DNA from: Gnetum montanum
Taxonomy: Eukaryota; Plantae; Gnetophyta
Length of the DNA: 64,000 nt
Direction: 5' to 3'
NCBI GenBank assembly: GCA_015680685.1
Contig: MNCI01002704.1
Location: 413,622-477,621 of the forward strand
Shown here piece after piece: positions 27,211 through 64,000 of this stretch. A program made the position numbers and the translations under genes. Under the pieces are notes generated by a model that saw only the letters and a list, made by a program, of their open reading frames with translations, was not told the DNA's origin and ran no database searches. How positions within the stretch are numbered: the first letter of the stretch is position 1; each line of letters starts with the position of its first letter.

Positions 27211-27471
27211 ATGGACCCTCTTTGTTGGTGCCTAGAAGACTAACCCAAGAGGCACCAATAGAGATTAAAAAACACCACTGCATATTATAATGCTACAATG
27301 CATACAGGTGACATGAGAGAATGAGGTTATCCAAGTTACCAAGGTTGCTAGTTTAAGGCCATGGTAGGCCATGGTACTAGTTTAAGGCCTTGGCAAGCAA
27401 TATTGGTAGTTTAAGGTCATAGTGGACCATTGAAAGTAGGCTCGCTTATTGATGATTATCAGCTACATGTA

Positions 27472-30400
27472 CTATGACTTTAGATAGGAATGATTGACTG
27501 GATTATCTAGCTCATTCCCATTCATGTCAACTATTCTGAAGGCTCCATTCTTGTAGGCTTTGATGATAAGGAAGGATCCTTCAAGGTTAGCTAAGAATTT
27601 TTCTACATGCTTATGAATGGCCTTGAGGACTAGGTCCTCCTCCTTGATCTTGTGCATGGTCAAGTCATGGTGATGTTGTTACTTTTTCCTTTGTTGATGG
27701 TGCTCAATGTGAGAAAGCGCTTGCATACACTACTCCTCCACCGAATCCAAGGTTTCCATATGTAACTCCTTATTCTACTCATCATTAATGAGGTTGATCA
27801 AGGCTAATTTGAGTAATGGAACCTATAGCTCAATAGGTAAAAATGCTTCAAAATGATAAACAAGTTTATAAGGAGTCATGCCAATTGCCATGTGATACAC
27901 TGTTCTATATGCCCATAGTGCATGGACAAGCCACTCATGCCACTTCTGCTTGATGTTGTTGAGCATCTTCTTGAGAAACTTGATGATGGGCTTGTTGCTT
28001 GTTTCTACTTGTCCATTGTCTTGAGCATAGTAAGGTGATGAGAAAGAATACTTAATGCCTAGGTTGTGATAGAATTTCTTGGTTTCTTGGTTGCTAAATT
28101 GAGGTCCATTGTCTATAACTATGATCATGGATATCGCAAAATGAGCTACAATGGCATAAATTTGCAAACTTGTTCTGATGTGGTCTTAACCCACTTGGTA
28201 AAGTATTTGGTTGTGATGATGATGAAGTTATGTCTTGCAGAAGACTTAGGTGTTATAGGTCCAATGATATCCAATGCATATTGCTAAAATAGCCATGTTA
28301 TCTAGGTTTTATGTAACTTAGTTCATGATACATGTACCATGTTGGTATATCGCAGGCATGTGTCACATCACTTAACCTTTTGCAGGCAATCATGTTTCAT
28401 GTGGGACAAATAGTAGCCTAACTATCTAATCTTAGTGATCATGGCTTTAGGCTTTATATGTCCTATACAAATACCCTTTTGAACATCCTCTAGGACTATT
28501 TTGGCTTTGATTTTACCGAAGCACTTTAGGAGTATGCCATCATAGGATCATCAACATAATGTGTTATCACCTATGATGACATACTACTTCAATCACTTGC
28601 ATATGACGTCCTTTTGAGTAGTACTTAGGCCTTGTAACAATTCACTATGCATAAAGTAAAATTTGATATCATCATACCACTCCTTGGAAGGAGCAGTATG
28701 AACAACAACCACAACGGTATCCTCAATGTTTTGTGTAATGGAAGTAGCACAATCCACAGTTAAGATGGGAAACTTGCTAAACACAACTAGCATCACACTA
28801 AGGGCTAATGTTGCAATTTCATTAGCTATGGAATTTTTGTTTCTAGGTATTTTTTGGACATCAACATCTATGAATTATTGTAATAACTACTTCCCTAGGT
28901 CATAGCAAGGTTGTAAGTACTTAGCTTTGCATGCATAGACTTTGATTACTTGGTTAACCACAAGTTGTGAATTGCCTTTGATGGCTAGGCATCTAATTCC
29001 TAGGTCACTAGCTACCATTATTCCTTTAATCAAACCCTCATATTCTACTATGTTTTTGATACATGGAAACCCAAAATGATAGGCAAAGGATCAAATCTCA
29101 CTAGATGGGAATGTTACAATGGAAACAACACTAGCCCCATGAGTGGTTGAAGCTTCATCAAAGTTCATGACTACCTCATAACCCTTAGACACTTGGCTAA
29201 CTATGTTAATGTGTTCATTAGGGAACTCAAGATCTATGGTTGATTGGTCATCAACAGGTGAAACCATGAGTTGTACAACTATGGCTTGACCTTCTATTGA
29301 GGATTAGAGACATAATGGAGGTTAAATTCCATAGATATGGCTTTCCATCACACTATATGGCTACTTTCACAGATGTTGGTTGTTATGGCTTTGAGTATGT
29401 TCTCCTTGCAAATTACATTGACTTGGCTTCTAAAGAGATACTCCATTTATTCAAAGAGAAGACTAGTGCTAGACAATACTTCTCCACTTCAGTGCATCAG
29501 GTTTGGTAGGAAACTAATGCATGACTAAGGTAGTATACATGCATTTTTTCTTTGTCATCACGTTTTAATAGAGTAGAGAGCTAATGGATGTATCAAATAT
29601 GGTGAGATAAATGTAAAATAGTTTACCCTCTTGTGGAGGATAGAATGTTGGTAGTTGTATCAAATCTTGCTGAAGGTTTTCAAAGGCCTCTTGGCATTGA
29701 GATGTTCACTCATAGTGAACTCCTTTCTTAAGCAAGTGTTGCATGGGTTGTAACTTATCTATAAGCTTAGTGATAAACATATGAATAAATTGTAATCTAC
29801 CTTGTAAAACCTGAAGCTCTCAAGGTGGGTAGGTGTTACTAATTTGAATATGACCTTAACCTTATTAGTATCTACACATATCCTTGCTTCAAAGACTACA
29901 AAGCCAAGCATCTTACTGATGTTGATGCCAAAGACACACTTCTTAGGATTGAGGCTAAGCTCATATTTGAGGCATCGTTTAATCCCAAGATCTAGGTCAT
30001 TAACATGATCATCGACCATCTTATACTTACAACTATGTCATCTATGTAATCATTAAGCAAACCTAACATGTAATCATTGAAGACATAGGTTATGGCTCTT
30101 TGGTATGTCACTCCAGCATTCGTAAGGTCAAAGGGCATCATGGTATAACCAAAAGTACCCCATGGGGTCATAAATGTCATGCTAAGTTAGTGCTCTAGGT
30201 TTATCCTAGTTTGGTTATATCACAAGAATCCATCCACAAAGGACAACAAGGCATTTCTAGCTATAGTATCAATAAGTTGATCAATACTAGGCAAAGGGAA
30301 GTCATCCTTGATAGTTTCTTTATTTAGTTCTTGAAAATCAATACAAATATAGATACTCCTTTTTCCGTAGGGACTACCACTATGTTGAATACCCATTCTA

Positions 30401-30952
30401 CATAATCTACAACCCTTATGAAACCTACTTGGTAGAGCTTCAAGATTTCATTGCTAACTACCAAGGCCAAATTAGGTTTAATCTTTTGCACTTTTTGCTT
30501 AACTGGTCTAATGCTAGGGTCTAGTATGATGTTGTGTTGGACTAGATGTGGATCTAGGCTTGGAATATCTTCATCTGACTAGGCAAATACTTTAATGTTG
30601 TTTTCTAAGATCTTGGTGATGTCTTGAGCACTTTGAGGCTCTAGTGAAGAACTTAGTTTAAGGGTTTTCTCCTCACCACTGTGTGTTATGACAAGAACCT
30701 CAACTAGAGACTCTTTAGTTATGTCTCTTGATTCTAAATTAAGGGTTTTGACTAGGGTTTCATGCCATTCTAGAGGTTTCCCTATTAAGGCTATGTGGTC
30801 TACAAGACTCTTAGGCTCAAGATCTAGATAATTAGGGTCAATACACTATTTAATATCACCGTGAGGTCCATGTAGACACAAAGGCAAACCAGTTGTTTCC
30901 AAGTTCTCATACTTTGATCCTGCATGTCAACCAAAAGCATATTAAGTGAAAC
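27472..30952 (-). pseudogene. pol: RT-RNaseH-aRNaseH-integrase remnant of element A
   Basis: TPWGTFGYTMMPFDLTNAGVTYQR...YIDD (29992-30180). LNPKKCVFG (29759-30019). aRH FDEAS...EYEGLI.G...GNSQLVV (~28950-29170). Integrase DNGPQF...SSPYYAQDNGQVE...LWAYRT (27823-28167). Confidence 0.92.
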
Positions 30953-33250
30953 CTAGGTAAAAGTAAATAAATAATGTTAAAATGCCATAAAACACATGTA
31001 AATCTAATGCAATCAAGGCCTTCCAAGATCATCAATGAGATAAGGCCAATTCAACAAAGTGCAATAGAGGCAAACAAAGATCAAGTGAAGGTCTAACTAG
31101 GGAAAACATAAGAAATAAGACTACAAATGTTTAATAAAGGTTACAATGTTGCTAGTTTTAGGCCTTAGCAAGCCTTGATGCTAGTTTAGAGTCTTGGTAG
31201 ACTATGATGCCAATTTATGATCTTAGTGGGCCATGGTCATATGGTGTCAAATGTTGTTAAGGGAAGGTCAAAATCCACTAGTTGATATCATTTAAGGGCC
31301 AAAAAATGATAATAAGATTTTGTAAAGGCTATAGAAGGACAACCAAGTCATCAAGGCAACATAACTCCAAAAACAAGCCAAAAAATTACGTAGTAAGATA
31401 AAAATCAAGCAAAATAGGCTATATATGATAAAATTTGGCTAATATACATAAAAAATGATTAGGTTTTACTAGTTTTAGGCCTTAGTGGACCATTATTTGA
31501 GGCTAGAAGGCTATTAGGTGAGTTCATGCATCAATTAGGGTTATTTCTAGGCTAATTCTACAAGTTGTTGACTTCAGGCATGTTCAAAGGCTATTTAAGG
31601 GCTCTTAATGTCTTTCCATTGTTTTCACACTGAGAGAGTTACTTCAGCATAGAATAATGGGAGGAATGAATTTTGGAGTTTGAAATAAGGTCAAATAAGA
31701 AAAATCTTAAGGCTACAAGGTCCTAGGCTTCCTCGACATAGATCTTTGACTTCTGGGAGTTCCATCTTGCCACAAGAAGTGGAAAAGTAGATTTTCCCCC
31801 TTGTTTCCATGCTATGGGGATTACTTTAGTTTGGAAGAAGGAATAATCATAGATCTATATTGATTCAAGTCACCATCAACCATGCATGTTATCTTCTGGA
31901 GTTGCCAAGGTCAATGGCTATGCCGTAGTGGTTTTTCTTTGAATTCCCCCCACCTTTCCATCTTGGTAATGGAGATCTTAGCATGAAAAACTATCCTAAA
32001 ACATTTTTTGGCTATTTGGAATTAGTCTTGTAAAGCATAAGGGCTCCAATGGCTATTGTCAGGGTTCTAGAGTGCATGAAAGATCATTTAATGTCATTCT
32101 AAGGTGTTTTGGAGCTCTAAACAAGTCATCCCTCAAGTTTCCATGTTGTGGATACTATCCTTAGCATGGAAAAAGGGATCCCTAATGAGAAAGAATCATG
32201 CAAGTTAGATCTAGGCCAAATTTGACCTCAATTGACTATGCATGTTAGCCTCTGGGGCTACCAGGGTCAAGGACTAGGGTTTGGTGTTAAATTTTGGTTA
32301 TTTTGGGTATTTCCAAGAATTATTTTTGGCTTTTCCCCTTTTTTCCACATTGGTACTTGAATTCTTAGAGTGAAAAACTAGGGGGAATCACTTTCTTGAA
32401 GTTTGAAATTTGACATCAATTTCTTGAAGTTTGAAGGCTCCAAATGATGTCGGCAGGGTCCTATAGCACATGCAAGTTTAGTTGATGTTATTTTGAGATA
32501 GTTATGGACTCCAAATAGGTCATCCCATTAATTTCCACAATGAGCAGCATGGAGAAGAAATTCCTAGCATGGAGACATCATAAAACTCATATCACACCCA
32601 ATTTTAACTTCAATTGACCATGCATGTTAACCTTTAGGGATGTTGAGGTTGAACACTAGTGTTTGGAGTCAAAACTAGTTAATTTATAGGTTTTCCAAGT
32701 GGTTTTTGAGCTTTCCCCTCTTTTTACATGTTGGAAATTGTATGCCCAATGTGGAAAATTTTTGGGAAATATATTTTTATTCCTTTGCATCAGTTTTTAT
32801 CCTGCATGTAGGTCCCTAAGGTTACTAGTCATGATGGTCAATGCCTAGTGTCAAAATTTTTCTATTTTGAAGGTTGATGAGTGTTTTTTTACACTTTCCA
32901 AAATTTCTCTACACTAGGGCTTCCATGATTAACTTGGAGAATTGGGGGGAAATCTTTTTAACCATTTGTAATCACTTTTGGTCATGCATGTAGGCTTTTA
33001 AGGTTGTTGCTATTGACCGCCANTGTTTTGGAGGTTGTGAGATGATTTTCAGGCTTCCCCAATTTTTTCCATGCTAAGGGTGGAAGCTTAGCATGGAAAA
33101 GGTCTCCCTTAGTAAAGAAAGTTAGATCTAGGCCAAATCAACAATCGATTAACCATGCATGTTAACCTTCCTGGTTTTCAATATCGATGGTCAATGTTAG
33201 GTGTCAAGATTCAATAGTTTGGAGGTTTTTAAGTGCCTCATGCAATCTCT

Positions 33251-33264
33251 NNNNNNNNNNNNNN
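33251..33264. other. assembly gap
   Basis: Run of N. Confidence 1.
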
Positions 33265-34161: not shown

Positions 34162-34535
34162 AATTTTGAAAATAGGGCTTGCTTTTTAATGCATTTTTTC
34201 CAAAATGGAATGACCATTTTTTTCAAATCTAGGCCTCTTGATTTGCTAAAATTATATTTTAACAAAATCCTACCCCATTATTTTAGTGTGAATTTTAATG
34301 GGAATTAATGATTTTGGCTATTTCAACTATTTCCATGGCTATATGAAATTTTGAAAATAGGGCTTGCTTTTTAATGCATTTTTTCCAAAATGGTATGACC
34401 ATTTTTTCAAATCTAGGCCTCTTGATTTGCTAAATTTATATTTTAACAAAATCATACCCCATTATTTTAGCGTGAATTTTAATGGTAGTTAATGATTTTG
34501 GCTATTTCAACTATTTCCATGGCTATATGAAATTT
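34162..34535. repeat. near-perfect tandem duplication, ~185-bp unit x2
   Basis: ttttgaaaatagggcttgctttttaatgc...ccatggctatatgaaattt occurs at ~34164 and ~34349. Confidence 0.95.
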
Positions 34536-36150: not shown

Positions 36151-36849
36151 TGAGTTGTAATTTTCGCTATGGGTTACTAACTAGCTATGTATTGTTGTAT
36201 TTCAAGCCTCAAGACACATTGGCAACCCCAATGATGAGGGTGGGAATGACCCACCACTTCCTCCTTTGGTTGCCACTCAGCAGCCTCGTTTAGTTTAGCT
36301 TGTTGGCTATTTGTTTTTGTTTCTATGTTGATGGCTATAGTTCACCAAGACTATGTTATGGATGGTTGTTATTATTTGACATTCTTGCTACATATTGTGG
36401 CCATGGCTATGTATGTTATGGACATTCTAACTTTAAACTAAAATTTTGATCTTATTTTTTGACTATGTGCATCTATAGTAGTAGTAAACATTGAAAATGG
36501 TTATGTTGAAATTTTTGGTTTTAACATTTAATCAATGTTAAACAAAAGGAGATATAATAATAAAAGGAACGTTTTCTAGTTTTAGGCCATCACAAGCACA
36601 GGTTATATTGTTTTGCCAATTTAAGGCCATGGTAGGTCATATCGCCAATTTAGAGTCTTAGCAAATTATAATGCCAGTTTAATGTCTTATTTGACATAGT
36701 GTCAGTTTAACATCTTAGTAGACATGTATTTATAAGGATTTTTTGATCATAAGAAGGGCCATAGTAAATAGGAAAAAATGCAAACAAACTTAGGCTACAT
36801 GCATAAAATGTCAAATATACAATAAAATGCAAAATAAAAGTAAGGCTAC

Positions 36850-39800
36850 TTGTCTATCAATGCATTTAGTCCTAAGGGCATGGGAAGGTCAAGGTGAACT
36901 TCACTTGTACAGATTCTCCTAATCTTTGCAAGATTAGGGAGTGAGTAAGGCCTACTCTACATAAGCTTGTATTCACCATCCCCTTCACTTACAATGTTAA
37001 AAGGGAGTTCATTCCATAATGTATCCCATTACCTATTGTTGTCATCCTTGGTTGTCTTGGGTTTTTTCTCTTCATGGCTAGAAGATTCTTCTTGAAGCTC
37101 CAATTCATACCCCTATCCTATGTCTATGTTGTTGAAAACTAGGGGAACCATGTTATCACCATGAATGATGATTTCACCTCCCTCATAAGAAAGATGAATT
37201 TCTTGATGGATGGATGAGGACATAGCTCATAACTGAGCCAACCAAGGTCTTCCTAGGATTAGGTTGAATATTGGTGTCTCTTCTACCACCAAGAAGTTGG
37301 TGGTTGTAGGGAATTATTCTCTAGCTACAAAATCCAAGGCGATAGACCCCTTGATGGTAACTCCTAATCCATTGAAGGTCTTAAGAGCTATAGTGGTTGT
37401 AGGTTGTACTTGCTTAGTTAAGCCTAAACATTCAATGATATTGCATGGGATGAATTTCATTGTAGCTCCATTATCAACATGCACCTGATGTATTTTAAAT
37501 TATCCTATATGTATGGTTATGAATAAATGGGTTGTAGTCACCTGGCCATTCTAGGGATTAACTTTAATTTCATATCATGAAATGTTAAGGCTGTTGACTT
37601 CTCCTCCCCTAGTGAGGGAGGAATCATCACTACATGGATAACTTTCTCATTAGCAAGAATATCCTCACTAATAGGTATAGAGGTTAACATTTTGACTAGC
37701 ACCTCATGATTTGTGCTAGAAGTCATGATTAGGTCATACAGGCTTAGGGTTGTTTTTTTCTATTTGAGGGATTGCCTGACTTGGTCCATTGCACTAAGGA
37801 AGTTTTTATTGTTGGTCATGGGCTTCTCACCATAGTTGTGCTTTACTTCCTCCATGCATCCCAAAATGTAGAATTCAACTTTAGGCTTTGGCTATTGTGG
37901 CTCTTCCTTGTTGTTTTGGTTGTGGTCTTTGGTTTCCTCTTGTTGCTTATTGGTTTAAGGGGTTAGGGTAGAGGAGGTCATGGGTATAGCTGAAATGGAA
38001 GTGGTCTTTGGTGGACCTACTTCCTCTCATACCTTTGTATGCTTGTCTCCCTTGTTATCAAGCTTTTACTCATGCTTCTTCCTTTGTTTGGTTATAGATT
38101 TTTGGTTATCGGCCATTGGTTGTAAGAAAGAGGTAGTAGCATTGGCCACCATAGGGGGTCATTGTATAGTTGGTTGGGCTAAGGCTTTTTGGGTTGTATT
38201 GGATTGGGAGACCTTGATGAGAAAAGGTTTCCTTGGATGCATTCATGATGGTACTCTCATAACAAAGGGCGATATTGAGGTATGGGAATCCAAAGAAGCC
38301 CTTTCATTGTAGAGGAATACTTGAACCATAAATGGTTCTCTTGCAGGTATCTAATTGTCATCAATGTTGAATGTTGAAATAACATATGGACTATCATTAG
38401 CATTCAATGGATCTTTGTAGACTTGCATTGACTAGTTTTGTGACCAAACTAGGTTAGAAGCATCTAAGACTAGTTTTCCACTATCTATCAGCCTTTGCAG
38501 GTCATCCTTCAATGTAAGGCAGAAGTTTGTATCATGACTAGGAAATTGATGATTATGGCAAAAGCAATCTAGCTTGAAGTATCTAGGTAACTAGGGATCA
38601 TCCTTCATTGCCCAATTGGGATCTCTAGCTATTTCACATAGTCTCTCATGTTTCTTTTGAGTGGCTTCAGTCATTTTTTTGTGTTGCATGCACCCACTTA
38701 TTAATACTTTATCTAGTAACTCAGATGGTTTTAATGGTAACATAGTGTATTTAGACTTGTCCTTCCTTTTGAAGTTAGGCCTATTTGTTGTCGATGCAGT
38801 GGTCCTAGAAGTTGATGGTTGGTTATTATGGTTATTGGTGGGGGCCTTGGGTAGATTGACCTTCAACCCTTGTTTCATGATTTTTTTTCCTTGGTTATAG
38901 TTGCTATAGTAGTGTTGTTTTGTTTGCTCTTTTCTTTTTCTCTTCAACCATGTTGGTTTTTATATGCTATATAGGCTAGATTATGACTAGCATTTATGGT
39001 ATCCTCTATATTTTTAGTTTGTAAGAATGATTGGCTAAGAGACCATAGGTCAAGGTAGTAGAGTTTGGAATTGATGAAGTTATTAACTACTCTCTTGAAT
39101 ATGGCTAACAAGTGGGCTTCAGTTATGGGCTTTGGTATTTCATTCAATAGTCTATTTAACCATTGAATGAACTTCTGTATGGGTTCTAACGTCCCCTGCT
39201 AGACCTTCATGAGTTGGTCAAGCATTGTATCAACCTTCAAGTTATACTTGATGTGGTTGACAAACTAGGCTACTAAGTCCTCCAAAGAGGATATGGATCC
39301 TCTCGGCAATGCATAATACTAATCAAATGCTTTCCTAGTTAAAGACATAGGAAAAACTCTCATGATGATATGAGGCTATGGCTACAAGAGTAAACATTTT
39401 GATCAAAAGGTAATAAGATGAGCATTAGGATTACCTTCTCCATTATATTTGCTAAATTGGGGAATGGGGGCACTAGGAGGAAGTGTTAAGGGTGGGACTA
39501 CAAAACTTATGGGATCATCTTGGTAGAAGTCCATAATCTTGATAGTTTTTATGGTAGAGGCTTAAAGCCTCTTCAACTCCTTCATTAGTCTTGGATCATG
39601 TGGAAGGTTTGATCCAAGCTTTGCAGTGGTCACATAGGTTTTGAGGTTTGTACATAAGGTTGTGGTGTCTATTGTGAGGCTTGCAGCCTTGTCATGGATT
39701 GCATGATAGAAGGAAGAGGTTGTGTTATGGTTGTGGCTTGTGGGCCAAACAAAGAAAAAGATGTTTTTGCTAGTACTTGAGGCTCAAATGAGACAAATGG

Positions 39801-40330
39801 GGTGTGTGACCCTTGTGTTTCTTGGGATCCCATGGTGGATCTTGTGTGAGTAGTTAATAGATTTTTGATGGTAAAAACCACCGTTGATGATTTTATATAT
39901 TGAGACTATGTTGTAAATGACATTGATTTGCTATAGTTAGTTGTTTGTGGTATTGGCTAAGTGTGATGTGTGGCTATAACTGATGTGGGATTTACTATAG
40001 TAGGGTAGGAAGGAGTGGAAGGTGGTGGCACCATGCTCATAGAGAAAAAAAAGCATTAGAGGAAGGTGCTATGACTTTGGGGGATGTTTGTTAGAACAAT
40101 CATTCCAAGATGCTTTTAGGCTTGAATTCTACCTTAAATTCATCCTCTTCTTCATGTTGTTCCTCAAAGCTAGGCTTGTCATCTTCCTCTTCCATGACAA
40201 TCAATTAGGTTTGGATGCTAGAATAGATGTCATTAAGGGAAATTTGGTCATACAGGGAAGGGATGTACTTTTTTCCACCCTTATGTATGAGCTCAAACTC
40301 CCTTTTTTCCTTAACTTCAATTCATGGAAT
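36850..40330 (-). pseudogene. gag: gag-protease remnant of element A
   Basis: Minus-strand gag with KYNGEGNPNAHL (~39420-39455), a Cys/His knuckle (~38520-38570), and protease VHVDNGAT (~37460-37485) and FNLILGRPWL (~37240-37270). Confidence 0.85.
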
Positions 40331-41519: not shown

Positions 41520-43080
41520 TATTATGATTGAAAACCTTGACCACTAGAAAAACCAAATATCCTTGATGTAATAGTTCCCCAACCCCAAATCCATAGGGCC
41601 TTCATGAGAAAAATGGGATTCAAGGTGTCCTAGTCAATTAGGCAGATCGACTAGGGACTTACAAAATGCAAAATGTGGGACTAAAAGAAAATGAAATGCA
41701 AAACTGGTAGCAAATTTGACATAATGCATAGATGATAAAAAAATATATATTTTTTACATAAAATCCAAAAATTAAAACTTTATTGGAAAATAAAATAAAG
41801 AATAAGTTTGAGAAATGTGTACAAATGATGCCTGAGTGTGTAGCAAAAGTGGCTTCACTGGTGTAGGAGTTCAAAGCTTGTTAAAGCTAATGGGATCTGC
41901 TTGACAATCCTGGTACTAAGTTGCTTCTGATGCTATTGAACCTTCCTCAATTACTACCACCTTAGATCTTGTAGTTGGATCACTATTGGAGGTGAGAAAA
42001 GAGGAAAATTTGGATGCCAGATTGCTCCATGCTAGGATTTGGGAATACCATAAGCGCTATGTTGACATCCAAAATCCACAAATATCAGGGCTACAATGCT
42101 TCCACACTGGGATTCAAGACAATGCAAATATGGGAACTTATAAGAGCTCTTGAGTGCCTAAGAATGTCCCAAGTGTGGAATTATGAATAATTTTGTATGT
42201 ATGCCAAAATTTTCTTGATAATACTGAACTTGCTTAAAATTCTAAAACCTGTAAATGGGGTTTAAGGTAAGATTTTATAGGATCTTTGGACTATGAATGG
42301 GACTACAAATTTGCTATGATTTGGCTGTCAAAATGGCTATAAAATGGCTACAAATTGCTTGTGAAATAGTTGCAAATTGGCTACCAATTTGCTACAAACT
42401 AGTTACCAAATTCAAGTGAGATGGGGGGTTACCATACATAGTAAGTGCTTCTCCACATGGCCATTCCATTTACTATAAGTAATAACTAGGACATGCCTTT
42501 CATGCTAGAGATGAATCTTCTATGCTGAGCTCTTGTAGAAGTGGCTACTTAATGTTGAAGTGCATGTAGTGATGAATTTTGGCTTTTGTGCCTTCCATGC
42601 TAGGGGATGTAATTTTCCACGTAGGGGGTGAAGACTCCACATCTGGGGAAACTTCCACAGTGAGGGAGAAGGTTTCTAGACTATGCATGTGGTCTCCACA
42701 CTAAAAGGAAAAAAATTTAAAAAATCCTACCTTTCCACAGTAGGGGTAGATAAGATTTACCCCCAAGCATGTGCTTCTAGCATATAAAAATGTATACCCT
42801 CCATAAAATTCATCAAATTTCTTTTTTTGACATTCCAAAAGGCATTTTTGACCCCCTCCCCCCAAGCCCAACTATAGACACTAGGTGACTTTTTTCACTT
42901 GGGGAATGAGGCTTTGACCACTTATGAGGCATTTTTCAACCCCAAAAGTATAAAGTATGTGAAATTTCCCACTATGGATTACAATTTTTACATTTACAAT
43001 GAATTTTTGCCTCCGGTTTCATGGGGTGAAAGCTACATGATGAATATTGAATATAACATGCATAGTTTTGTCATGTTTCA
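41520..43080 (-). repeat. 5' LTR of element A (~1561 bp)
   Basis: Homologous to 25676-27210; flanked by the PBS on the inside and TSD atggg on the outside. Confidence 0.9.
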
Positions 43081-46000
43081 ATGGGGTAATACACCAAAAA
43101 TATGGGGTGATAACCTAGAGTACACTAGAGAGATGGGGCAATACACCATAGCCCACAAAGCACCATAAGCCCCTAGTCATGAATGCACAGGCTCAAGTGC
43201 TTTTTAGCACATACAAATCCATCATATAGGGCCTCCAAGAGAAATTAGTAATTTTGAACTATGCATCATTTGTTCTAGGATGGACAACCATTCCAATGAT
43301 TGCAAAAAATACCCCAAAGACCACATCCATTCATGGAAGAGGGAGTCTAGGTGCTAATACCCAAAACTTAGCTCTAACCCTTAGCTAGTCATGACAACAT
43401 CACCTTGGATTTGAATATTCAGTCTACCATTGAAACTCACATGGACACCACGAACCACCCACTATCAAGATCAAGTTCATTGAGCTAATTTGTTTGAATT
43501 TTAGGTTACATTCCATAATCAATAACCCATGAATAAGATTCTTGTCAATCAAGGAACTTGAAAGAAATAATTCCACAATTTGTCCTATCTCAAGAAACGC
43601 TCACTAAAGGACATACCATCATAGCATGCCAAGACAAAGAACATACAGCATCATTTTGGAAGCACCTTGAGCAAGATCATGCCCTAGCATCCTTATTACA
43701 TTACCATATACAAAATAATAGGATTTTTCATAGGGATTTCAAAAGATCTCATATCAGGGCACAAACGTTACTTACAAACATAGAGAGGAGGTGCTTCTAG
43801 GATGAGCATATGAAAATACCATACATCAATTTTGGCCTTGTCATAGGGTGTGGCATAGGTATACAATAAGGAAAAAACTTATTCATATAAGGGAATAACA
43901 TCTAGCACTTTTTTTTGCATGATTTATTAAAAGTGAGTACATCACAACATTACATTACAATCTTGCACATCCAAGGATAGGAATTCATTTGGTGAGCATA
44001 ATACATGACATTTGGAAATGTTACCCAAACCTAGAAGGCTATAGGACAAACTACTCGACCCCATCCTAATTTGAAGGGTTTAAGCCACCATGATCAATAC
44101 CAAAGCTACATCATGTTGTTTTGAGAAAAATTTATCCATGTCTTTGCATGTACATGAACAAATATTGCATTGCACCCACTACAAGACTACCATCAAAAGA
44201 AAACAAATAGGTACATGAACATAATGATTGAACCACATAGGACACCAACTAAGAATCCACCACCCATCATAGTGAAACCACAAGGAATTGGCCACTCTTG
44301 AACCATTAGTATCTAGCATGGCTAAGGATACTATTTTATGACATCTGCTAAGTCAATATCTATAGGGTCTAGGATGGATCACCATTCTCTGTTAGTGCCC
44401 ACCTAGCACTGAGAGGCAAACAAATCATGATGTACTAGTTGCTCCACCACAGCAAGGATATAGATAAATCCACAACCCAATGTTGGGATTTTGAGGCCAA
44501 GTAACTACTTCATGAAGGCCTCAACAGCACACATGTTTCCCATAGACATAATGCTCATAGAATCAACTAAGATCACCACCAGCTACATCTTTATACCTAT
44601 GCTAACTACAAGGGCAAGAAAATAGCCTAGAAACAAAGCAGTTAGCAAGAACATGATTAGCACATTAGCCTCATATACAACCATCAAGCATGATCACACA
44701 ACTAAGAAATATCTATCTTAGAACACCATAGAAAGCAAGACCTCAGCAACACACATAGAGATCAATCATGCAAAACATGATGGGTTAATTAGATACACTC
44801 ACATAAAAGAATTTATCATGAGGAACACCAAGAGAGAGAGAAGTGTAACACTCTAAAAATTCCAAAGATTTACATATAACAAATGTTCCTAGCCATTGAC
44901 ACTGGTTTCCATTAAGATCAAAATCTCAAAAAATTCACAAGAGCCATTGGCACTAGAAAACCATTATCTCAACTCAAAACATAAGGAGGGAGACCAAGTT
45001 CTAGCCAACAATAGGTCTCACCAAAGCTCCAATTCTCTCTACAAAGAGCAACATTAGACAGAATGCATCCACAAGGAAAACTCTCATTAAGAGAGGTGAG
45101 GTCTCAACAAGAACCAATAATAGGATGACTTGTTCCAAAAGGTCTCTAAATTAAAATTCCTAATAAATAACACCAACGAAAGAAGTGATGCCACAAAACC
45201 AAGGGCAACACAACTAGCTCAATGAGAAAACATAACACACATGAGATCTATGACAAGGGTAACTATGCCCAAAGCACAAGAAGTTATCAAAACAAGAACC
45301 ATAATAATTTGATCTTGGGATGGCACACATGGACTCAAAATGCATCCTCAACAATCCCAACAATGAGTCATCAGATAGCATAGAACACAATTCTTTGAAT
45401 TATGAACAATAGACACAGAAAGAGAGACATACATGCAGAATTTGAAAATGTAGTCAAGGAAAACACACATACATAACTAGACAAACATACAATCACAAAC
45501 ACAAGCATATGAAGACTACTAATGATGGTCTTGATCAACCTAGAACTAAGCTCACTGAGAGCACATGTTCGAAGGCCCTCCCTCATGAGGTACTTAGGAT
45601 CCAACATGTCCAAATTTGTAATTCCCCCACTCACTGTATCTAGGGTGAATGGGGATGTAAGAATATTGTATCCTACATAATTCAATCAATGCCATCTTAA
45701 TACATGTCATCTAAGTGGATACTAGGTACAATTCATCCTAGATGAACAACTAAAGACTAGAGATGAGAGCTCCCTAAGCAAAAGTAATTTATATGTTGCT
45801 AATAGAAATCTCTTTTGTGATATCAAAGTAAAACCATAATTGGTCCAGCCACAAGTAAATTAATGGAGGGCAACCCAACAAGATAACCATATACATCCTT
45901 TAGAAGAACAACATACATCAGTTGCTCATACCATAACATCAACCCCATAATGAAACACTTAAGAGTCTTACCATAAGGCAACTCTTTAAAAAGTACATAA

Positions 46001-47109: not shown

Positions 47110-49602
47110 GTAGTATGGATTTAAATAGGAATGATTGATTGGATTGGCTAACTGATTTCCATCCTTGTTAGCTATTCTAAACACACCATTCTTGTAGGCT
47201 CTAGTGATAATAAAGGGCCATAACAATTTTCAAAGATAATCCTATGATGACATATTGCTTCAATTTCTTGCATACAACATCCTTTTTAGTAGTTAGGACT
47301 TGTGAGGATTCGTCATGCATAAGGTAAAATATAATATCATCATGAATGATGGCCACAAAGGTATCCCTGGTGTTCTATGTGATGGAAGTAGCACAGTTCA
47401 TAGTTAAGGTGGACAACTTACTAAACACATCTAGTGTCATACTAAGGGCTAACGTTGCAATTGCAAAGCTATGATGTTCTTGTTTCAAGGTATGTGTTGG
47501 ATATTCATGTCTATGAATTTTTGTAACAATTATTCTCCTAGGTCATAGTAAGGTTGTAAGTGTTTGGATTTACATGAATAGACTTCGGTTACTTACTAAA
47601 CCATGAGTTGTGAATTGCCTTTGATTGCTAAGCATCTACTTTCTCGGTTATGAGCTACAATCATCCCTTTGATCAAACCCTTGTACTCTGCTATGTTTTT
47701 GGTACATGGGAACTCAAAACAATAGGCAATGGGTTGAGTCTCACCAGATGGAAATTCTATGATGGAAGTAGCATTGGCCCCATGGGAAGTTGAAGCTTCG
47801 TCAAAGTGCATGATCACCTCATAATCCTCAGAAACTTAGCTCACTATCTTACTATGCTCATTAGGGAATTCAAGATCTATGACTACTTCATCATCAATAG
47901 GTGAAATCATGAGTTGTAAGGCTATAGCTTGACCTTTCATTGAGGATGAAGAGACATAATGAAGGTCAAACTCCATGGTTATGGCTTTCCATTGGGCTAT
48001 ACGAGTACTTTCATAAATGTTTGTTATGGCTCTAAGTATGTTGTCTTTGCAAATGACATTGACTTGGCTTCTAAAGAGGTAGTGTCTTCACTTCTTCAAA
48101 GAGAAGACTACTGCTAGACAATACTCCTTCACTTTAGTGTATTAGGCCTCATGGAAAACAAATGCATGGCTAAGGTAGTATATAGGAATTTCTACTCCAT
48201 CATCATGTTTCTGACAAAGTAGAGAGGCAATGAATGCATCGAATATGGCAAGGTAAATGTAAAATGATTTACCTTCTTGTGAAGGATAGACTATTGATAG
48301 TTGTATCTACTCTTGCTTAAGGTTTTCAAAGGCCTATTGGCATTGAGTCCTCCACTCATAGTAAACTCCTTTCTTAAGCAAATGTTGCATGGGTTGTAAT
48401 TTATTAGCAAGCCTAGTGATAAACATACAAATAAACTGTAATCTGCCTTATAATCTCTAAAGCTCCATAAGGTTGGTAGGCATTGCTAATTTGGATATGG
48501 CCTTAACCTTATCAAGATTGGTCCATGTCCTTGCTTTAGAAACTACAAAGCCAAGCATCTTATTAATCTTGACATCGAAGATACATTTCTTGGGATTAAG
48601 CCTAAGCTCATATTTGAGGCATTATTTAAGCACAAGGTCTAGGTTATTAGCATGGTTATTGGCCACTTTGAACTAAATAGCTATATCATCTACATAATCA
48701 TTGAGAAAATCCAACATGTAATCACTGAATATATAGGTCATCACTCATTTATAGGTCACTCCAACATTCTTAAAGTCGAATGACATCACAGTATAGCAAA
48801 AGGTACCACATGGGATCATAAAGGTCATGCTAACTTAGTGCTCTAGGTTAATCCTAATTTGATTATATCCTAATAACCCATCCATAAAGGACAATAAGAC
48901 ATGTCTGGCCATAGTATTAATAAGTTGATCAATACTAGGCAAAGGGAAGTTAGCCTTGATAGTAACTTTATTTAGGTCTTGAAAATTGATGCAAATATAG
49001 ATACTCCCATTCTTCGTAGGGACTACCACTATGTTGGACACCCATTTTTCATAGTTGATAGTCCTAATAAAACTAGCTTGGTATAGCTTTAAGATCTAAT
49101 TATCAACTACCAAGGCTAAATCAGGTCTAATCTTGTGCACTTTTCGCTTAACTATTCTAATGCTAGGATCTAGTGTGATGTTGTGCTAGACTAAATATGG
49201 GTCTAAGCCTATCATAACTTCACATGACCAAGCAAAGGTTCTAATGTTTCTTTGTAGGACCTTGGTGATGTCTTGAGCCTATTGAGGTTCTAGTGAGGAA
49301 CTTAGTTTAAGGATTTTCTCCTCACCAATATGTGTTGTGATAGGAACCTTAACTAAAGAGTCTTCGATTATGTTACCTACCTCTAAGTTAAGGGTTCTAA
49401 CTAGGTTTTCAAGCCATTCTAGAGGTTTCTCTATCAAGGCTATGTGGTCTACAAGATTCTCAAGCTTACGATCAAGGCAATCAAGGTTGATACACCATTC
49501 AACATCACCATGAGGTCCATGTAGATACAAAGGTAAAATAATTTTCTCCCAAGTACTCATACTTTGATCTTGCATGTCAAACAAAAGAATATTAAGTGGC
49601 AC
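47110..49602 (-). pseudogene. pol: RT-RH-aRH remnant of element B with integrase core deleted
   Basis: NIVVVPTKNGSIYICINFQDLNK...FPLPSIDQL...FMDGLLGYNQI (48835-49041). aRH HFDEAS...NIAEYKGLIKG (47596-47817). The integrase jumps from its N-terminal region to the GPF region at ~47220-47240. Confidence 0.9.
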
Positions 49603-52600
49603 CTAGGTAAAAGTAAATAAAAAATTTTAAAATGCTATAAAATCATGTAAACACATGTAGATCTAATGCAAACAAGGTTGTCCAAGGCTATAAATAGGGA
49701 ATCAACAAGAAAAAAAAGTGCAATAAGGACTAAATAAATGTCAAACCAAGGTTAAACAAAGTAAAGTATAAGAAATAAGACTACCAATGATCAAAAAGGC
49801 CATAATTTGACTAGTTTTTGGCCTTAATAGGCCATGATGCTAGTTTAAGGCCTTAATGGATGATGGTCACATGGTATCAAATAGTGGTCAAGGAAGGTTA
49901 AACCCTACTATTTGATATCATTCAAAGGCCAAAAAATGGAAATAATGCTACAATATATAATGCTATAAAGACCATAAGAAGATTAATAAGGTTGACAATG
50001 TAACACTAGCCTGAAACAAGTCAAAGCATCATGTAATAAGGCAAAAATCAAGCAAAATAGGTTACATATGATGAAATTTTGCTAATATAGGTAAAAAAAG
50101 GATTAGTTTTTACTAGTTTTAGGCCTTAGTGAGCCATGTCTTGAGGTTTCAAGGTTATTGGATGAGTTCAGGCATTAATCAAGGCTATTTCTAGTCTGTT
50201 TGGACCTAAAAATTAGGATTTTTTAGGCTTTCATATTGGGCCCCCCTTATTTCCACACTAGTTGGCATGGAAGAAGGGATTCTCAACATGGAAACCAATG
50301 AGAGTATATTTCAGAGCATCCATAGGTCCAAATTTGAGTTTCCAAGACCTCCCAAAGGCAATGTAGGGCCAAATCTATCAAAATTGAACACTTTGAAGGT
50401 CTATAAAGGCCAAAAGGCAAGCTTTGAAGCCTCACCCATGTTTCCATCCTAGAAAGCATGGAAAAGATGAGGTTTAACGTGAAGAACCAATATTCAAGTT
50501 AAAACAAGATCAAACATGGTTAAACAGGTAGTCAAAATCTAGATTTGGGAGTTGTGCATCCCTTAGCTTTGTTTTAAGACAATTTGAGGTAAGTTTGAGC
50601 ATTAAAAAATGTTGAAATGGCTTCCCCATCCTTCTTTTTCCACATTAAGCATAGTATCCCTAACATGGAAGAATGGGAGGAACACTTTTTTTGTGGATTT
50701 AGAGTGGTCTGAGAGCACATTGACCAAGTTTCTAGGCCCCTAGAACTATAGGTCATGATTCTATAAGTTTCTAGTTCATTTTGGGCATGTTTGGAGATCA
50801 TTAAAGGGCACCTAACGTCTTTCCCTATTTTTCCATGCTAGGAAAGTTGCTCCAACATGGATGAATAGGGGGAATGAATTTTAGAGGTCAAAATGAGGTC
50901 AAACAAGTAAAATTTTCAGCCTATGAGGTTTTAGGCTCATCCAACGTAGATCTTTGGCTTCCAAGAGTGTTGTCTTATCACCAAAGTGGAAAATCAACTT
51001 TTCCCCAATGTTTTCACACTACCCAACATGAAGGGGATCTTCTCTAGCATGGATGGAGAAAGAATATTATTTCTAGATCAATTTTCATCATAACCGACCA
51101 TGCATGTCAACTTCTACGGTTGCTAGGGCCAAGCGCTAGGGTTTCTATTAAAATTTGGTAATTTTATGTACTTTTGGATGTTTTTTGGGCTTTTCCCCTT
51201 TTTTCCACCTTAGAGCTAGGGAGCTCAGTATGGAAGACTAGGGGAACCACTTTTTGGCCATTTGGAATTAGTTTTCTATGGTTTGAATGCTCTAATAGCT
51301 ATTAACAAGGTTCTAGAGTGCATGCATACTTGTTTGATGTTATTCTGAGGTGTTTAAGAGCTAAAAATATGTTTTCTCATCATTTTACACATTGGACAGT
51401 GTCAAGGAAGGGATACCTAGCATGGAAGAATCATAAATCTTAGATTTAGACCATTTTTTACCTTAATAGATCATGCATGTGTGCCTCCAAGGTTGTCAGG
51501 GTCAAAGACTAGGGTTTTAGGTCAAGTCTAATGAGTTTGGAGGTTCCCTAGATGGGTTTCAAGCTTCTCCCCTATTTTCCACAACAAGGATAGCATGCTC
51601 AGTGTGGAAGACTAGAGATAGAAACTTTTGTCTCTCTATGATCAATTTTGTAAGGTTTGAGGGCTCCAAAAGGTGTAAAACTAGTCCTAGGGTTCATGTG
51701 AGGCTATAGGGTGACTAACTGAGGTGTCTGAAGCTCATTTTGAAGTCTCCCGAAAATTTCCCTCTATGTACCATGTTGGGAAACATGGAAGAAGTGGCTC
51801 TAAACATGGAAGAACTAATGAACTGTAATTTTTTCCATTTTCTATCATCTCTAGCTATGTCAAAACTTGATCATTTCAAGGGTTATTAAGTAGTTTTTGG
51901 GCTTTCACCATATTTTCCCCACTAGGGCTTTCATGCTCAGAGTGGAAGATTGGAGAGAAGGATTTTTTGGCTATTTGTGGTCAATTTCAAAGAGTCTAAG
52001 GGTTCTAGGGTGAGTAGACAAGTTCCTAGAACACACACAAGGATTTCTAGCATTCATTTAAGGTCCTTGAGAACCATTTTAGTGTCCCACCAAAGTTTCC
52101 CCCTTTCCACCAAGTGGGTCAATGTGGAAGAGGTGGATCCTAGCATGGAGGAACCAACACTAAATTTTTGCTACATTTGGTAGTTTTGACTATGCATTAG
52201 TATCTACATGATTGCTGGTGTTGTCTATCAATGTCTATGGTCAAAATCCAATTATTCTAAAGGCTATGAGTGGGTTTTTAGACTTTCCCCCCTCCATCCA
52301 CACTAGGGTTGGGATTCTCAACGTAGATAAGTTATTCCCTGGTGTGAAGAGCCCAAGGAAGATAAGTTTTGATCATTTTAGATGACTTCTAGAAGTCTGG
52401 TGGCTTCCAAAAGGTCTAGGTTGCTTTTGGAATTTGAACTACATGAAAAATCCAATGGTTTTAACTTCTCCCCCTTTCATCCACATTGGGACTAGGATTC
52501 TTATCATGGAGGGGATCCTCCTCAACATGGAAGTACCTTAGGAAGTTGATTTGTTTCATTCTAGTTGCTTCTAGAGGGAATATCAAGGTCCTAATGTTAG

Positions 52601-58190: not shown

Positions 58191-58879
58191 TTTTGGCTAT
58201 TTGTTTTTATTTTCATGTTAATGTCTATTATTAACCAATACTATATCATAGATGGTTGTTATTATTTTTTGACATTTGTTCCACATAGTGTGGCCATGGG
58301 TATGTATGTTATGAATATGTTAAGTCTAAATTTAAAATTTAAAATTTTGGTTTTATTTTTTGGTTGTCTATATTGTTCTAGTAAACATTGTAAATGTTGT
58401 GAACATTGTGAAGGGCTAGGTTGAAATTTTTTAGCTATAAAATTAGATAGCTAATTAATGAGATAATAGGTTAAATAAGAAGTATAATAATAATAAAAAG
58501 ATGTTTGCTAGGTTTAGGCCATCATAGGCACAAGTTATATTGTGTTGCCAATTTAAGGCCATAGCAGGTCTTGATGTCAGTTTAAGGTCATAGCAGGTCT
58601 TGATACTAGTTTAAGGTCATAATAGGTCATGTTGTGTGATTATCTTTGCTAGCTTAAGGCCATGGTAGGCCATTATTCTAGTTTACGATCATAGTAAACC
58701 ATTGTTAAAGAGAAGCTTATATTTTTTGGTGATTTTATATTTTAAGTTATTCAAGGATTTTAGATTGTTCATAACATGAGTAAAAGCAAATAAGAAAAAA
58801 TGCAAATGAAAGTAGAAACTTAGGCTACATGCATAAAGAGTAAAACAAATTATATAAAAAAAATATCACAAATTAGGCT

Positions 58880-61800
58880 ACATGGCTATTGATGCATCTG
58901 GTTATAAGGGCATAAGATGAAAAGGTTAAAGTATATGTCACTTGTGTAAATTCTTTCTAATCTTTGCAATATTATGGAATGAATAAGGTCTACTCTACAC
59001 TATCTTATATTCATCATCCCCTTTAGTGATGATGTGAAAAGGGAGTTCATCCCATGACACATCCCATTTCTTATCATTTTCATCATTGGCTTTCTTAGGT
59101 TATTGAATTTCATGGCTCAAAGCTTCTTCTTGAAGCTCCACTCTAGACGCTTGCTCTATGTTCATAATGTTGGTAGCTAGGGGAACAACATTATCACCAT
59201 GAATAATGATTTCACCTCCCTCATAAGAAAAATGAATTTCTTGATGGATGGATGAGGATACAACTCATAATTGAGTTGACCAATCTCTTCCCAGAAAAAG
59301 GTTGAACCCTAGTGTTTTCTCCATCATCAAGAAATTAGTAGTCATGGGGAATTTCTTCCTCACCATGAAGTCTAAGGAGATGGACCCCTTGATAGAAACC
59401 TTGGATCCATTAAAAGAATTGAGGGAAATTGTTGATGTATGCTATATTTGCTCAGTTAAACCTAAGCATTCAACAATGGTGCATGGGATGATGTTAGTTG
59501 TAACTTCATCATCAACATGCACCTAATGCACTTTGAACTACCCTATACATATAGTTATGAATAGAGGAGTTGTATTTACTTCACCATTTTGCGGATCAAC
59601 CTTCATTTCTCTATCATGAAATAAGAGTGGTATTAACTTCTCCTCACTTAGCAAAGAAGGAACCATCACTACATGGATGGATTTCTCGTTAGTAGGGATG
59701 TCCTTACTAATGGGGATAGAGGTCAACATTTTGACTAAGTCCTCACAATGTGTAGTAGAAGTAATGATCAAGTCACATAAGCTTAGAGTTTTTTTTTTCT
59801 ACTTGAGGAATTACCTGACTTGGTCCATCATACTAAAGAAGTTTTTATCATTAATTGTGGACTTATCACCCTGGTTGTGCTTTACTTCCTTCATGCTCCC
59901 CAAAATATGAAATTTAGCTTTAGGTTGTGATAATTGGGGCTTTTCCTCATTGTTCTAGTTATGGGCTTTGGTGTCTTCCTATGGCTTGTTGGTTGGAGCA
60001 AGTTGGGTAGAGGTCACGGGTAAAGCCAAAATGGGAGCGGGCTTCGAAGGGACCACTTCCTTCTACGTCTCCTTCTACTTGTCACCCTTGTTGTTGGGAT
60101 TTTGCATAAGATTCTTCCTTTGCTAGGTTAATTTTTTTTTTTTGTCATTCATTGGTTGTGAGGAAGAGGCAGTAGTATTAGCCATCACATGAGGTCATTG
60201 TGTAGTTGTTTGACCTATGGTTGTTTTGGTTGTGTTAGGTTGAGATACCTTTATAATAAAAGGATCCCTTGATGACATTCATGATGGTATTCTTATGATG
60301 AAGATGGATCTTGAGTTGATGGAGGCTAAAGAAACCCTTTCATCATAAGGGGATACTTAGATCACATATGGTTTTCCTGGGGTTTCCAATATTTATTAAT
60401 GTTGAATGTTGAAATGATGTAAGGGCTATCATTAGCATACAATAGGTTCTTGTAGACCTACATCAACTAATTTTATGATCGAATTGGGTTGGAAGCATCT
60501 AAGACCAGCTTCCCCTATCAATCATCCTCTACAATATGAGGTAGAATTTTGTGTCATGACTAAGTAGCTAGTGATAATGACAAAAGTGATCTAGTTTGAA
60601 GTACCTAGGTAGTTTTTGATCATCTTTTGTTACTATAGTGGGTTATTTGGCTATTTCACAAAGTCTATCATGCTTCTTATGGGAAGCTTCAGATAGTTTC
60701 TTGTATTGAATACACCCAACTTTTTATAAGTTCATCTAATAGCTTGGATGGCTTTAGAGGTAAGGTAGTGTACTTAGACTTGTCCTTCCCTACAAAATTA
60801 GGTCTCGTTGTTGTCAATGTAGTGGCCCTAGAGATTGATGTTTGGTCATTGCAGTCATTAGTGAGGGCCTTAGGTGGGTCATTCCTTGGCCCCTAGTTTC
60901 TAGTCTTTGTTTCTTTGTTCATAGTTGCTACAATCATATTGTTTTGCTTGTTCTTATCTTTTTTTCTCCATGTATGTTGATTTTTATATGCTATGTAGGC
61001 CAAATCATGACTAACCTTCACAACATCCTCTATATTTTTAGTTTAAAAAAATGCCTGGCTAAGAGTCTACAAGTTAAGGTAGTAGAGCTTGAACTTTATG
61101 AAGTCATTAGCCACTCCCTTAAATATGATCAACGAGCGGGCTTCAGCTATAAGCTCTAGTATTTAATTTAGTAGTCCATTCCACAATTGGATGAACTTCT
61201 GAATGAGTTCTAGGAACCCTTGCTTGACCTTCATAAGTTGGTCAAGCATTGTGACAAGCTTCAAGTTATATTTAAAGAAATTGATAAATTGGGTAATTAA
61301 GTCCTCTAGAGAGAATATGGATTCCCTAGGTAATGGTACGAGGTCATGGCTATAAGAGAAAGCATTTGAATAGAAAGATAATAAGATGAGCATTAGGATC
61401 ACCTTCTTCATTGTATTTACTAAACTAGGGAAAATGGACAACAGGAGTAAGTATCAAGGGTGGGACCATAGAACTGATGAGATCATCCTAATAAAAGTCC
61501 ATAATCTTGACAACTTGTGAAGTAGAGGCTTTAAGCCTCTTCAACTTCTCTATTAGGTCGTAGATCATCTAGAAGGCTTGCTCCAGGACCTGTGATGATC
61601 ATGTTGGTTGTGGGGTTTGCACATAGGGTTGTGACATTTGTTGTGAGGCTTGTGGCCTTGCTATGGATTATAGGATGGAAGGAAAAGGTTACGTTATGGT
61701 TGTAGCTTGCAGGAAAAACAAAGAAAATGATGTTTATGCTTGTACCTAAGGCACAAACAAGATAAAGGGGTTGTATGACCCCTGAGTTACTTGGGGTCCC

Positions 61801-62302
61801 ATGGTGGACTCTATATAGGTGGTTAATGGACTTGTAGTGGTGAAAACCACCATCAATGATTCTACTAATCAAGGCTATGTAGAAAATGACATAGATGTGT
61901 TATAGGTTATTGGTTATGATGATGATTGAGTTTGATGTGTGGCTATGACTAGTGTGGAACTAGTCATGATAGGATAGGAAGGAGTGAGAGATAGTGGCAC
62001 CATGTCCATGGAGAAAACAAAAGTGTAAGCGGAAGGTGCTATGATCTTGCAAGACATTTGTTGGAATAATCCTTCCACGATGTTTTCAAGATCATATTCT
62101 ATCCTACATTCATCCTCCTGCTCTTATTATTCTTATGAGCTATGCTTGTCATCTTCCTCTTCCATCATAATCAATTGAGCCAGAATGTTCACATAGATAT
62201 CCATTAGAGGTATTTCGTCATACAAGGAAGGGACTTACTCTTTTCCATCCTAATGTATGAGCTCAAACTTCCTTTTTGCCTCTACTTCCATACATGAAAT
62301 CA
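58880..62302 (-). pseudogene. gag: gag-protease remnant of element B
   Basis: ORFs 59538-59771 and 61163-61441 match A's 37538-37726 and gag region; protease VHVDD motif at ~59505-59525. Confidence 0.85.
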
Positions 62303-62444
62303 TGAGGATAGCCTGCATTTTTTTTTGAGAGAGAGAATGTTCGGGATTGTATTACTGAGAAATATAGTACACAAGTATACAGTTTAAGGGTCATCAGTGA
62401 TGGCCCACTGGAAAAAAAGGGGGGGAGGAGGGGTGGGAGCCTCA
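62303..62444 (-). repeat. putative 3' LTR of element E (~142 bp)
   Basis: Minus strand TGAGGctccc...gctatCCTCA (5-bp inverted termini), preceded by tttaggagggg-tgc. The partner LTR is outside the window. Confidence 0.65.
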
Positions 62445-62447
62445 GCA

Positions 62448-62458
62448 CCCCTCCTAAA
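62448..62458 (-). promoter_or_regulatory. PPT of element E
   Basis: Minus strand tttaggagggg, 3 nt upstream of the LTR start. Confidence 0.65.
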
Positions 62459-62685
62459 CTCAAAACTCAAAAACCAACAACTAGGGGAGGGCAGGTGGGT
62501 GCACCCCCAACAAACAGAAACGACCCCCAATGACCAATCGCTGTCCCCCACCACCAACCCACAAGGGGGGGGGGCCACACCCAGAAATGTGGGAGGGGGG
62601 GCAAAGAAAATAGAAAGCATTTGCGCTGCCGACGGGGGGGGGGGCCTTAGGGGCAGGTCGGTAGATGGCGGCAGGCGCACTGCGG

Positions 62686-63994
62686 TCATTCAAGTTCATG
62701 GAGCAAGTCCAGGGTGTTGTGGTGCTCTTCAGTGTTCATGAAGTTCGCCGCTTGTTGGATGCTCTGCATGACAGACTCTCGCTTACTCCGATCAGCCGGT
62801 GAGTCCCCAGCGTCCGGATGGAATCTTGCTGACCTGCACTGAATATGTCGCCTAAGCTCCCCCCAGGAGCTCTCACAACTTATGCCCAAGATACTGTATG
62901 GGCAGTGTCCCCCCCTAAGCCACTGATGGGCACTGTGCTCGTGTGCCCGGTTGAGCTGTCTTTGTCATTGGTCTTCCTCTTCTTGCAATCGTTCATGTTC
63001 TTCCCTTGCCACCTGCTTTTGGGCTTGATGGGCCACCTCCTCCTGGCACAGCTCCTCCCTAACCTGGTCTCGGATCTCATCGATGAGCCAGGCCCATGTA
63101 GCCTCTACCATGAGCACATGTTGTCATGTCATCTCTTGTGCTTGTTCGTGGAACTGGGCCTCTTGCTCGACACGAGATTGGGCTAGGGCCTCGTTCCACT
63201 TTGCCTCCCACTCCCATCGTTCTACCTCCCACACAACAATAGCCGCCTGTTTTTCGGCAAGGTGTAACTCCGCATCCTAGTTCGGGGGGCATTGGGGGGG
63301 TCTGGTAAGGGATGCAAGCTATGTTGGGAGCAGCGTCCCCAGGTGAGACTCGTAAGGTGAGTTTTCAGGCTGGGGGAGGTTGAAGAGGTGGGGGGGCATC
63401 AGAGGTGCTCCCCCCAGGGGGTAGAGGATGGGCCTAGCACCCCCCCCCCCCCCCCCCCCCNCACAAAGCCAAGATCAACCCCGAGTGACGACCGTGTCGT
63501 TTAAGGCAAAGGATCTCCAGGAAAAACCACGGGATGTTAACCTGGATGCCGAACTTCAAGCACTACAAAAAGACAAAATGCAAGCCCTGAAGCTTGGATG
63601 CATTGCCAGACTAGACAAAAAAATGATCCACCAAGTTGGTAGCCCGGGTCTAGAGGCATGGGAGAGAGGATCTAGGAACTTGGCAGCTCTGCGTTCTAGG
63701 TATGGGTCCCTCGAAAAGGGTCGCAGCGTCCTATAGGCCATGGGTAGTGGACAGGAAGATTTCTCCTACAGCCGGGGCCCCCAAACAGCTGGCAATGGCA
63801 GATTCTATGATGCAAATCTTGCATCCTTGGAAGTGGGTTCTGTCAACGTTCCAATTTGCAAAGAACACATCGTCAGCAAGGTCTGGGTCACCGACCAGCC
63901 GCTGCAACGGGCTAGACCAGCCGCACTTGGTGACCAACCACCACAGCTCCTCATCTTCCCAAAAAGTGGCACAGTCAGGCTCGAACATCGGCAT
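62686..63994 (-). pseudogene. extra ORF of element E: retrotransposon eORF-like domain + Pro linker + coiled coil + J-domain
   Basis: One frame from 63994 to 63461 with four TAG stops, one frame change near the poly-C/N tract (~63440-63461), then one frame through the coiled coil and J-domain to the TGA at 62686. Confidence 0.75.
62704..62901 (-). other. DnaJ-like J-domain with HPD motif
   Basis: PYSILGISCESSWGELRRHIQCRSARFHPDAGDSPADRSKRESVMQSIQQAANFMNTEEHHNTLD follows J-domain consensus spacing (YeiLGv....s..eikkayrkla.kyHPD...f.ei.eAyevL.d...R..yD). HPD is at 62820-62812. Confidence 0.8.
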
Positions 63995-64000
63995 GGCATC

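Follow-up and report, generated by a model that had tools for sequence, protein, structure and literature searches.

Several described systems share features with the locus reported here. In plants, LTR elements carry extra open reading frames that have been assigned to the families Transposase_32 (PF20167), Athila ORF-1 (PF03078), plant mobile domain (PMD, PF10536), and Transposase_28 (PF04195) (PMC11728184, PMC6317226, PMC7264820). PMD proteins encoded by transposable elements have been proposed to be counter-silencing factors, and the Arabidopsis J-protein SILENZIO acts together with HSP70 in silencing (PMC8616336). As to non-LTR elements, target-primed reverse transcription is expected to leave a poly(A) end at a T-rich target (PMC3747384), a geometry that would not be expected of an LTR end, and in SART1 of Bombyx, an overlapping UAAUG links ORF1 and ORF2 (PMC3894237).

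The locus is found on a stretch of 64,000 nucleotides from Gnetum montanum (GenBank assembly GCA_015680685.1, contig MNCI01002704.1, positions 413,622 to 477,621), which is referred to as the window; all positions are those of the window, and features are located on its minus strand unless stated otherwise. Positions 62318-64000 belong to one broken copy of a high-copy element, of which they form the 3′ end; the element is GC-rich and poly(A)-tailed, and the carrier is likely a plant non-LTR retroelement of the L1 type. This portion contains two coding regions, designated ORF-A and ORF-B, the second of which includes a J-domain-like segment. The preferred explanation, held with a little less than even confidence, is a two-ORF accessory cassette on a poly(A)-tailed non-LTR element, with two coupled proteins being likelier than one fusion.

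The Poly(A) Junction and Its Insertion Target

On the coding strand, the unit reaches its poly(A) about 320 nt past the last stop codon. The tail is seen as T9 on the plus strand (62318..62326) and was recognized from homology breakpoints and empty-site contigs; the first four T residues appear to be target-derived. The insertion target of the cassette's carrier is an older, AT-rich element (58753..62321). Homology between this neighboring element and its copy within the window stops at 62300-62321, and empty-site contigs, numbering 23-35 per DNA run (21-35 per row), diverge to other sequence past either 62300 or 62321. The two elements also differ in composition, with a GC content of 55% in 62318-64000 versus 37% in the neighbor and a CpG observed/expected ratio of 0.42 versus 0.14.

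RNA reads that have the same tail behind the T-run differ in the sequence flanking it (17 reads, agreement 0.49). The possibility that an LTR begins at the junction was rejected, since at this place the siblings have a T-run with mixed flanks. Because the poly(A) is found at a host T-run and there is no LTR at this position, the junction looks like a non-LTR (L1-type) insertion, which contradicts an LTR setting. Two traits of L1-clade LINEs are present: the 3′ end is a poly(A) tail located at a T-rich target, and the copies, with about 3000 contigs per run, are dispersed, their flanks being unrelated (agreement 0.49). An LTR-bounded location of ORF-A is not seen, the downstream end being a poly(A) tail and the upstream end lying beyond the window. 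The element runs past the window edge at 64000, so that any ORF1 and any ORF2 with endonuclease and reverse transcriptase would lie beyond it; within the 64 kb, neither a reverse transcriptase, a 5′ end, or a target-site duplication nor a second copy of the element was found.

Between ORF-B and the tail, a GC-rich 3′ UTR with runs of G and C (62383..62646) is prone to indels among siblings, and the terminal approximately 60 nt (62327..62382) have far more sibling depth than the remaining UTR. Contig depth over 62322-62382 is roughly 5- to 200-fold above that of the next UTR bin, as if this were a conserved 3′ recognition sequence common to more copies or families. Folding of the tail RNA revealed nothing notable (z = −1.3).

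The insertion target is itself the second of two copies of an old element (36734-40330 and 58753-62300), which are 74% identical. By their motifs, both copies are presumably gag/protease-like; a Pfam search of the respective frames in the older element gave no match. Further old repeat pairs are present at 28570-31553 and 47241-50197 as well as at 25687-27214 and 41531-43084 (77-78% identical); the former pair lies over decayed frames that we take to be pol-like. At 34162-34535, two 184-nt units that are 96% alike are arranged in tandem.

Sibling contigs matching 62200-64000, a range that includes host flank, numbered 2926, 2915, and 3290 among 44-50 million in three DNA runs. With about 3000 contigs per run, most of them less than 95% alike, the family is large and old. 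In the unstranded oligo-dT RNA library X14, 871 of 12.6 million reads align, distributed across the two coding regions; identity is at least 99% in only three of these reads and below 90% in 719. Nearly all of the oligo-dT reads thus originate from other copies, which indicates that some copies are transcribed. Decay is mostly in the direction of deamination (34 of the 40 rows listed, 25 of these in a CG or CHG context), which together with the repeat content suggests a host plant with a large genome; the window copy is dead. Sibling depth peaks over the J-domain (62810-62992), several-fold above the upstream domain; possible reasons are 5′ truncation and stronger conservation, since depth is not equal to copy number.

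Two Coding Regions Preceding the Tail

ORF-A, the upstream coding region, comprises a family-unplaced domain (63462..64000) and is cut by the window edge. Its frame extends over 179 codons from 64000 to 63464, the first ATG being at 63994-63992. The frame proposed originally, passing through four stops, and the peptide quoted for it are correct; all four stops in the window copy are TAG (63731-33, 63650-52, 63611-13, and 63563-65). This number lies within chance expectation (4 versus a shuffled mean of 7.1, P = 0.14). Evidence for coding comes from the siblings. Out of 81 polymorphism rows, 40 were listed, 33 of them in 63466-63617; after seven near-fixed rows had been set aside, 16 of the remaining 26 polymorphisms are synonymous in the ORF-A frame versus five and four in the other two frames, and 14 of 26 fall on the third codon position (P = 0.025). 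The ORF-A contig pieces among those listed are all free of gaps (8 of 8, over 1761 letters with 293 substitutions). At 63563-65 and 63650-52, most of the sibling depth departs from the window sequence; at 63611-13, this applies to 24 of 39 RNA reads, but to only about 30% of the contig depth. Among the 40 of 585 rows listed, three of the four stops are thus altered in siblings. Because the middle base is affected as well at two stops, not all four can be accounted for by the single change from CAG to TAG proposed originally. The existence of a genuine coding region, decayed and carried by a transposon, upstream of the J-domain frame is supported, and the ORF-A and J-domain regions adjoin in at least two other copies.

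ORF-B, the downstream coding region, consists of 250 codons (62647..63399), from the ATG at 63399 to the TAA at 62649-62647, and is interrupted by five stops in the window copy. Among the rows listed, siblings differ at four of them (63319, 63277, 63124, and 62686; the fifth is at 62965), so that the J-frame probably ends at the TAA at 62649-62647. Also here, stop density is within chance (5 versus a shuffled mean of 9.7, P = 0.07). Among the 24 contig pieces listed out of 9151, three are on the host and 21 on the element; of the latter, 16 of 18 pieces in coding sequence are gap-free versus none of three reaching the UTR (Fisher P = 0.008). ORF-A and ORF-B are coding in the family.

Three parts can be distinguished in ORF-B. 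The N-terminal part (63274..63399) is Pro-rich and poorly conserved, with low sibling depth and pLDDT values of 40-48. It is followed by predicted long, coiled-coil-like helices (62914..63273), with 44% E, Q, R, or K over 104 codons; AlphaFold, run without an alignment, gave confident long helices at residues 63-182. The J-domain-like segment (62716..62901) contains an HPD motif at 62820-62812 in the spacing of DnaJ. In Pfam, DnaJ was matched with 22.3 bits (E = 1.4e-4, positions 2-60 of 63) and, in a second run, with 20.3 bits, both scores of this decayed copy being below the gathering cut-off of 27.8. All 32 PDB sequence matches with E ≤ 1 align over this segment (best E 0.018), most of them being named DnaJ, Hsp40, or Sec63; two matches with clone names are, we assume, J-proteins, too. 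In the AlphaFold model, the J part has a pLDDT of 43-48 at residues 181-220 and of about 72 at residues 221-240. Foldseek with this low-confidence model yielded no fold match, a word-based search with the J-frame for proteins of near length gave none among 397 candidates, such a search being weak for a decayed query, and the best ESM Atlas value for the open piece of the J-frame (0.77) was uninformative.

In the way its conserved-looking residues are spaced, ORF-A may resemble the extra ORFs of plant LTR elements. Membership in the Transposase_32 or Athila ORF families, as suggested originally, is unconfirmed, with neither Pfam nor three protein searches giving a match. For ORF-A, Pfam returned only an unrelated weak match (Pkr1, E = 0.025); it is a weak test for decayed sequence and missed the gag/protease-like frames of the neighbor as well. 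Likewise weak for a decayed query, word-based searches gave none among 271 candidates for longer proteins and none among 28 for proteins of near length. The single-sequence AlphaFold model of ORF-A has a pLDDT of 36.8, there being no homologues for a profile. Two candidates for relatives were rejected: L001, from a metagenome scan (1 of 598 stretches), had been selected through an 8-residue pattern and lies opposite to a bacterial-type ORF, on the other strand, and L002, from a viral scan (1 of 5), is the opposite strand of another ORF. What stands of the original reading of ORF-A is thus the transposon-borne coding region, while its family is unconfirmed, its LTR context contradicted, and its fusion with the J-domain unsupported.

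The presumed resemblance of ORF-A to LTR-element extra ORFs would also suit a passive origin of the unit, in which L1 machinery copied either part of an LTR element (a subgenomic mRNA or a captured piece) or else a host J-protein retrogene, and the encoded proteins would have no role for the carrier. Poly(A) mRNAs can indeed be mobilized by L1 (PMC3747384). Against this stands the observation that, in siblings with a divergence of 10-17%, frame and synonymy are preserved in the two coding regions, but not in the UTR, which argues for selection during amplification; a passive copy is considered very improbable.

Reading Phase between ORF-A and ORF-B

The two coding regions are separated by a run of 21 C residues at 63440-63460 followed by a single N at 63461 (together 63440..63461, assigned to neither strand), the length of which is unreliable. 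Both the C run of about 21 nt with its N and the need for one frame change were noted correctly in the original prediction; the J-domain frame is one base off the ORF-A frame. Single Ns also occur at 33023, 40535, and 40649, and a 14-N gap at 33251-33264; the lengths of homopolymers adjacent to the Ns are unreliable.

Alignment over 63325-63625 gave a single contig spanning the tract in run X7 and another in X8; in X2 there was no such contig, and in X15 there was one read. Between the anchors, the X7 contig has 3 nt fewer than the window, with 13 other letters in 123, and has the same phase as the window, leading to a stop at 63434-36 without overlap with the ATG. The X8 contig, from what is guessed to be an RNA run, is 5 nt shorter and in the third frame, which is open to a TGA at 63401-63399; it has 30 aligned letters past the N, which barely reaches or narrowly misses the 31-letter rule of the alignment tool, and 63431-63460 is skipped by this tool. 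As the two contigs disagree, at least one of them has slipped in this unstable tract (n = 2).

In the phase of the X8 contig, the stop overlaps the first ATG of the J-frame, creating the motif TGATG (63397..63401), a candidate site for stop-start coupling. Its bases show no variant among the 40 of 81 rows listed, at a summed depth of about 400-450 in two DNA runs, and only two of the 27 ATG triplets on the minus strand of the element, that of the TGATG included, are preceded by TG. The overlap was noticed after the fact, and the upstream ORF is in the required phase in one of the two bridging contigs.

Two other ways of connecting the regions were weighed. The first is one fused protein of approximately 448 codons, made up of the ORF-A domain, a Gly/Pro linker, the coiled coil, and the J-domain; the C run, having slipped or been mis-assembled, would account for the frame change. 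Such a fusion is possible, though doubtful. The J-frame is open for 20 codons from the tract to the ATG at 63399, as a fusion requires, this ATG is in weak context, the length of the tract varies among siblings, and a single N marks it, with other single Ns being present in the assembly. However, neither of the two bridging contigs is in the fused phase, so that a single protein of roughly 430-450 amino acids is not supported; the absence of a longer relative among the 271 candidates points in the same direction, albeit weakly, since no relative of any length was found.

The second is that of two uncoupled ORFs, with ORF-A ending at the TAG at 63434-36 after a run of Gly and ORF-B starting 35 nt further on by reinitiation or from its own RNA. 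In its favor, this phase is common to the window and the X7 contig with its 13 other letters. On the other hand, the N makes the tract length of the window unreliable, the phase of the X8 contig is a different one, and the TGATG overlap would have to be due to chance; this arrangement is considered improbable.

Proposed Function and Relation to Known Elements

According to the preferred explanation, i.e., two coupled accessory ORFs, the element would have been inserted by L1-type target-primed reverse transcription with the T-run as the nicked primer, and the unit would spread by L1-type retroposition, either autonomously or in trans. Having terminated ORF-A translation at the TGA, ribosomes would resume on the ATG that overlaps it, and ORF-B would be made from the same RNA. 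The ORF-B protein is predicted to recruit host Hsp70 via its J-domain, held out on the coiled-coil arm. By analogy, the most plausible use would be chromatin counter-silencing of the element's own copies, in conjunction with ORF-A; as a second choice, the cassette may serve refolding or remodeling of the element's ribonucleoprotein, with its reverse transcriptase complex being chaperoned. A more far-reaching version, regarded as rather unlikely, is that of an autonomous plant LINE lineage with two accessory genes behind the reverse transcriptase, coupled by UGAUG and enlisting Hsp70 to shield or assemble the element; one gene would be a domain from LTR-element extra ORFs and the other a coiled-coil J-protein.

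With plant L1-clade LINEs, the cassette shares a poly(A) end that adjoins a T-rich target as well as a conserved terminal stretch, as described for one plant L1 lineage (PMC3747384), while the last coding regions before the tail of the cassette are not the end of an ORF2 and the tail is without notable fold. As in SART1 (PMC3894237), a one-base overlap of a stop with the following start would be present in a non-LTR element; the differences are the UGAUG, its location between two accessory ORFs instead of between ORF1 and ORF2, and a phase that is seen in one contig only. Like the extra ORFs of plant LTR elements (PMC6317226, PMC11728184, PMC7264820), ORF-A is an accessory coding region carried by a mobile element of a plant, but its carrier ends in poly(A) without an LTR, and a J-domain comes after it. 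ORF-B shares the HPD motif in DnaJ-like spacing with J-domain (Hsp40) proteins including SILENZIO; it differs in that its J-domain is C-terminal after a long helix, is multicopy on a mobile element, and scores below the Pfam cut-off.

No published case of a retroelement-encoded J-domain was found in a search that was mostly by title and abstract and covered openly accessible papers. The word "DnaJ" is absent from the available portions of main text and supplements of PMC5203782, PMC11728184, PMC13468544, and PMC6317226; further domain tables belonging to them may list one. Retroelements with accessory ORFs are already known, and it is the combination of poly(A) tail and J-domain that differs here.

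Accessory ORFs of plant LTR elements are well known, while their functions are largely open. Since the J-domain has a standard readout, namely HPD-dependent stimulation of Hsp70, the role of such ORFs becomes testable. If the presumed resemblance of ORF-A holds, it would mean that accessory modules have been exchanged between LTR and non-LTR elements.
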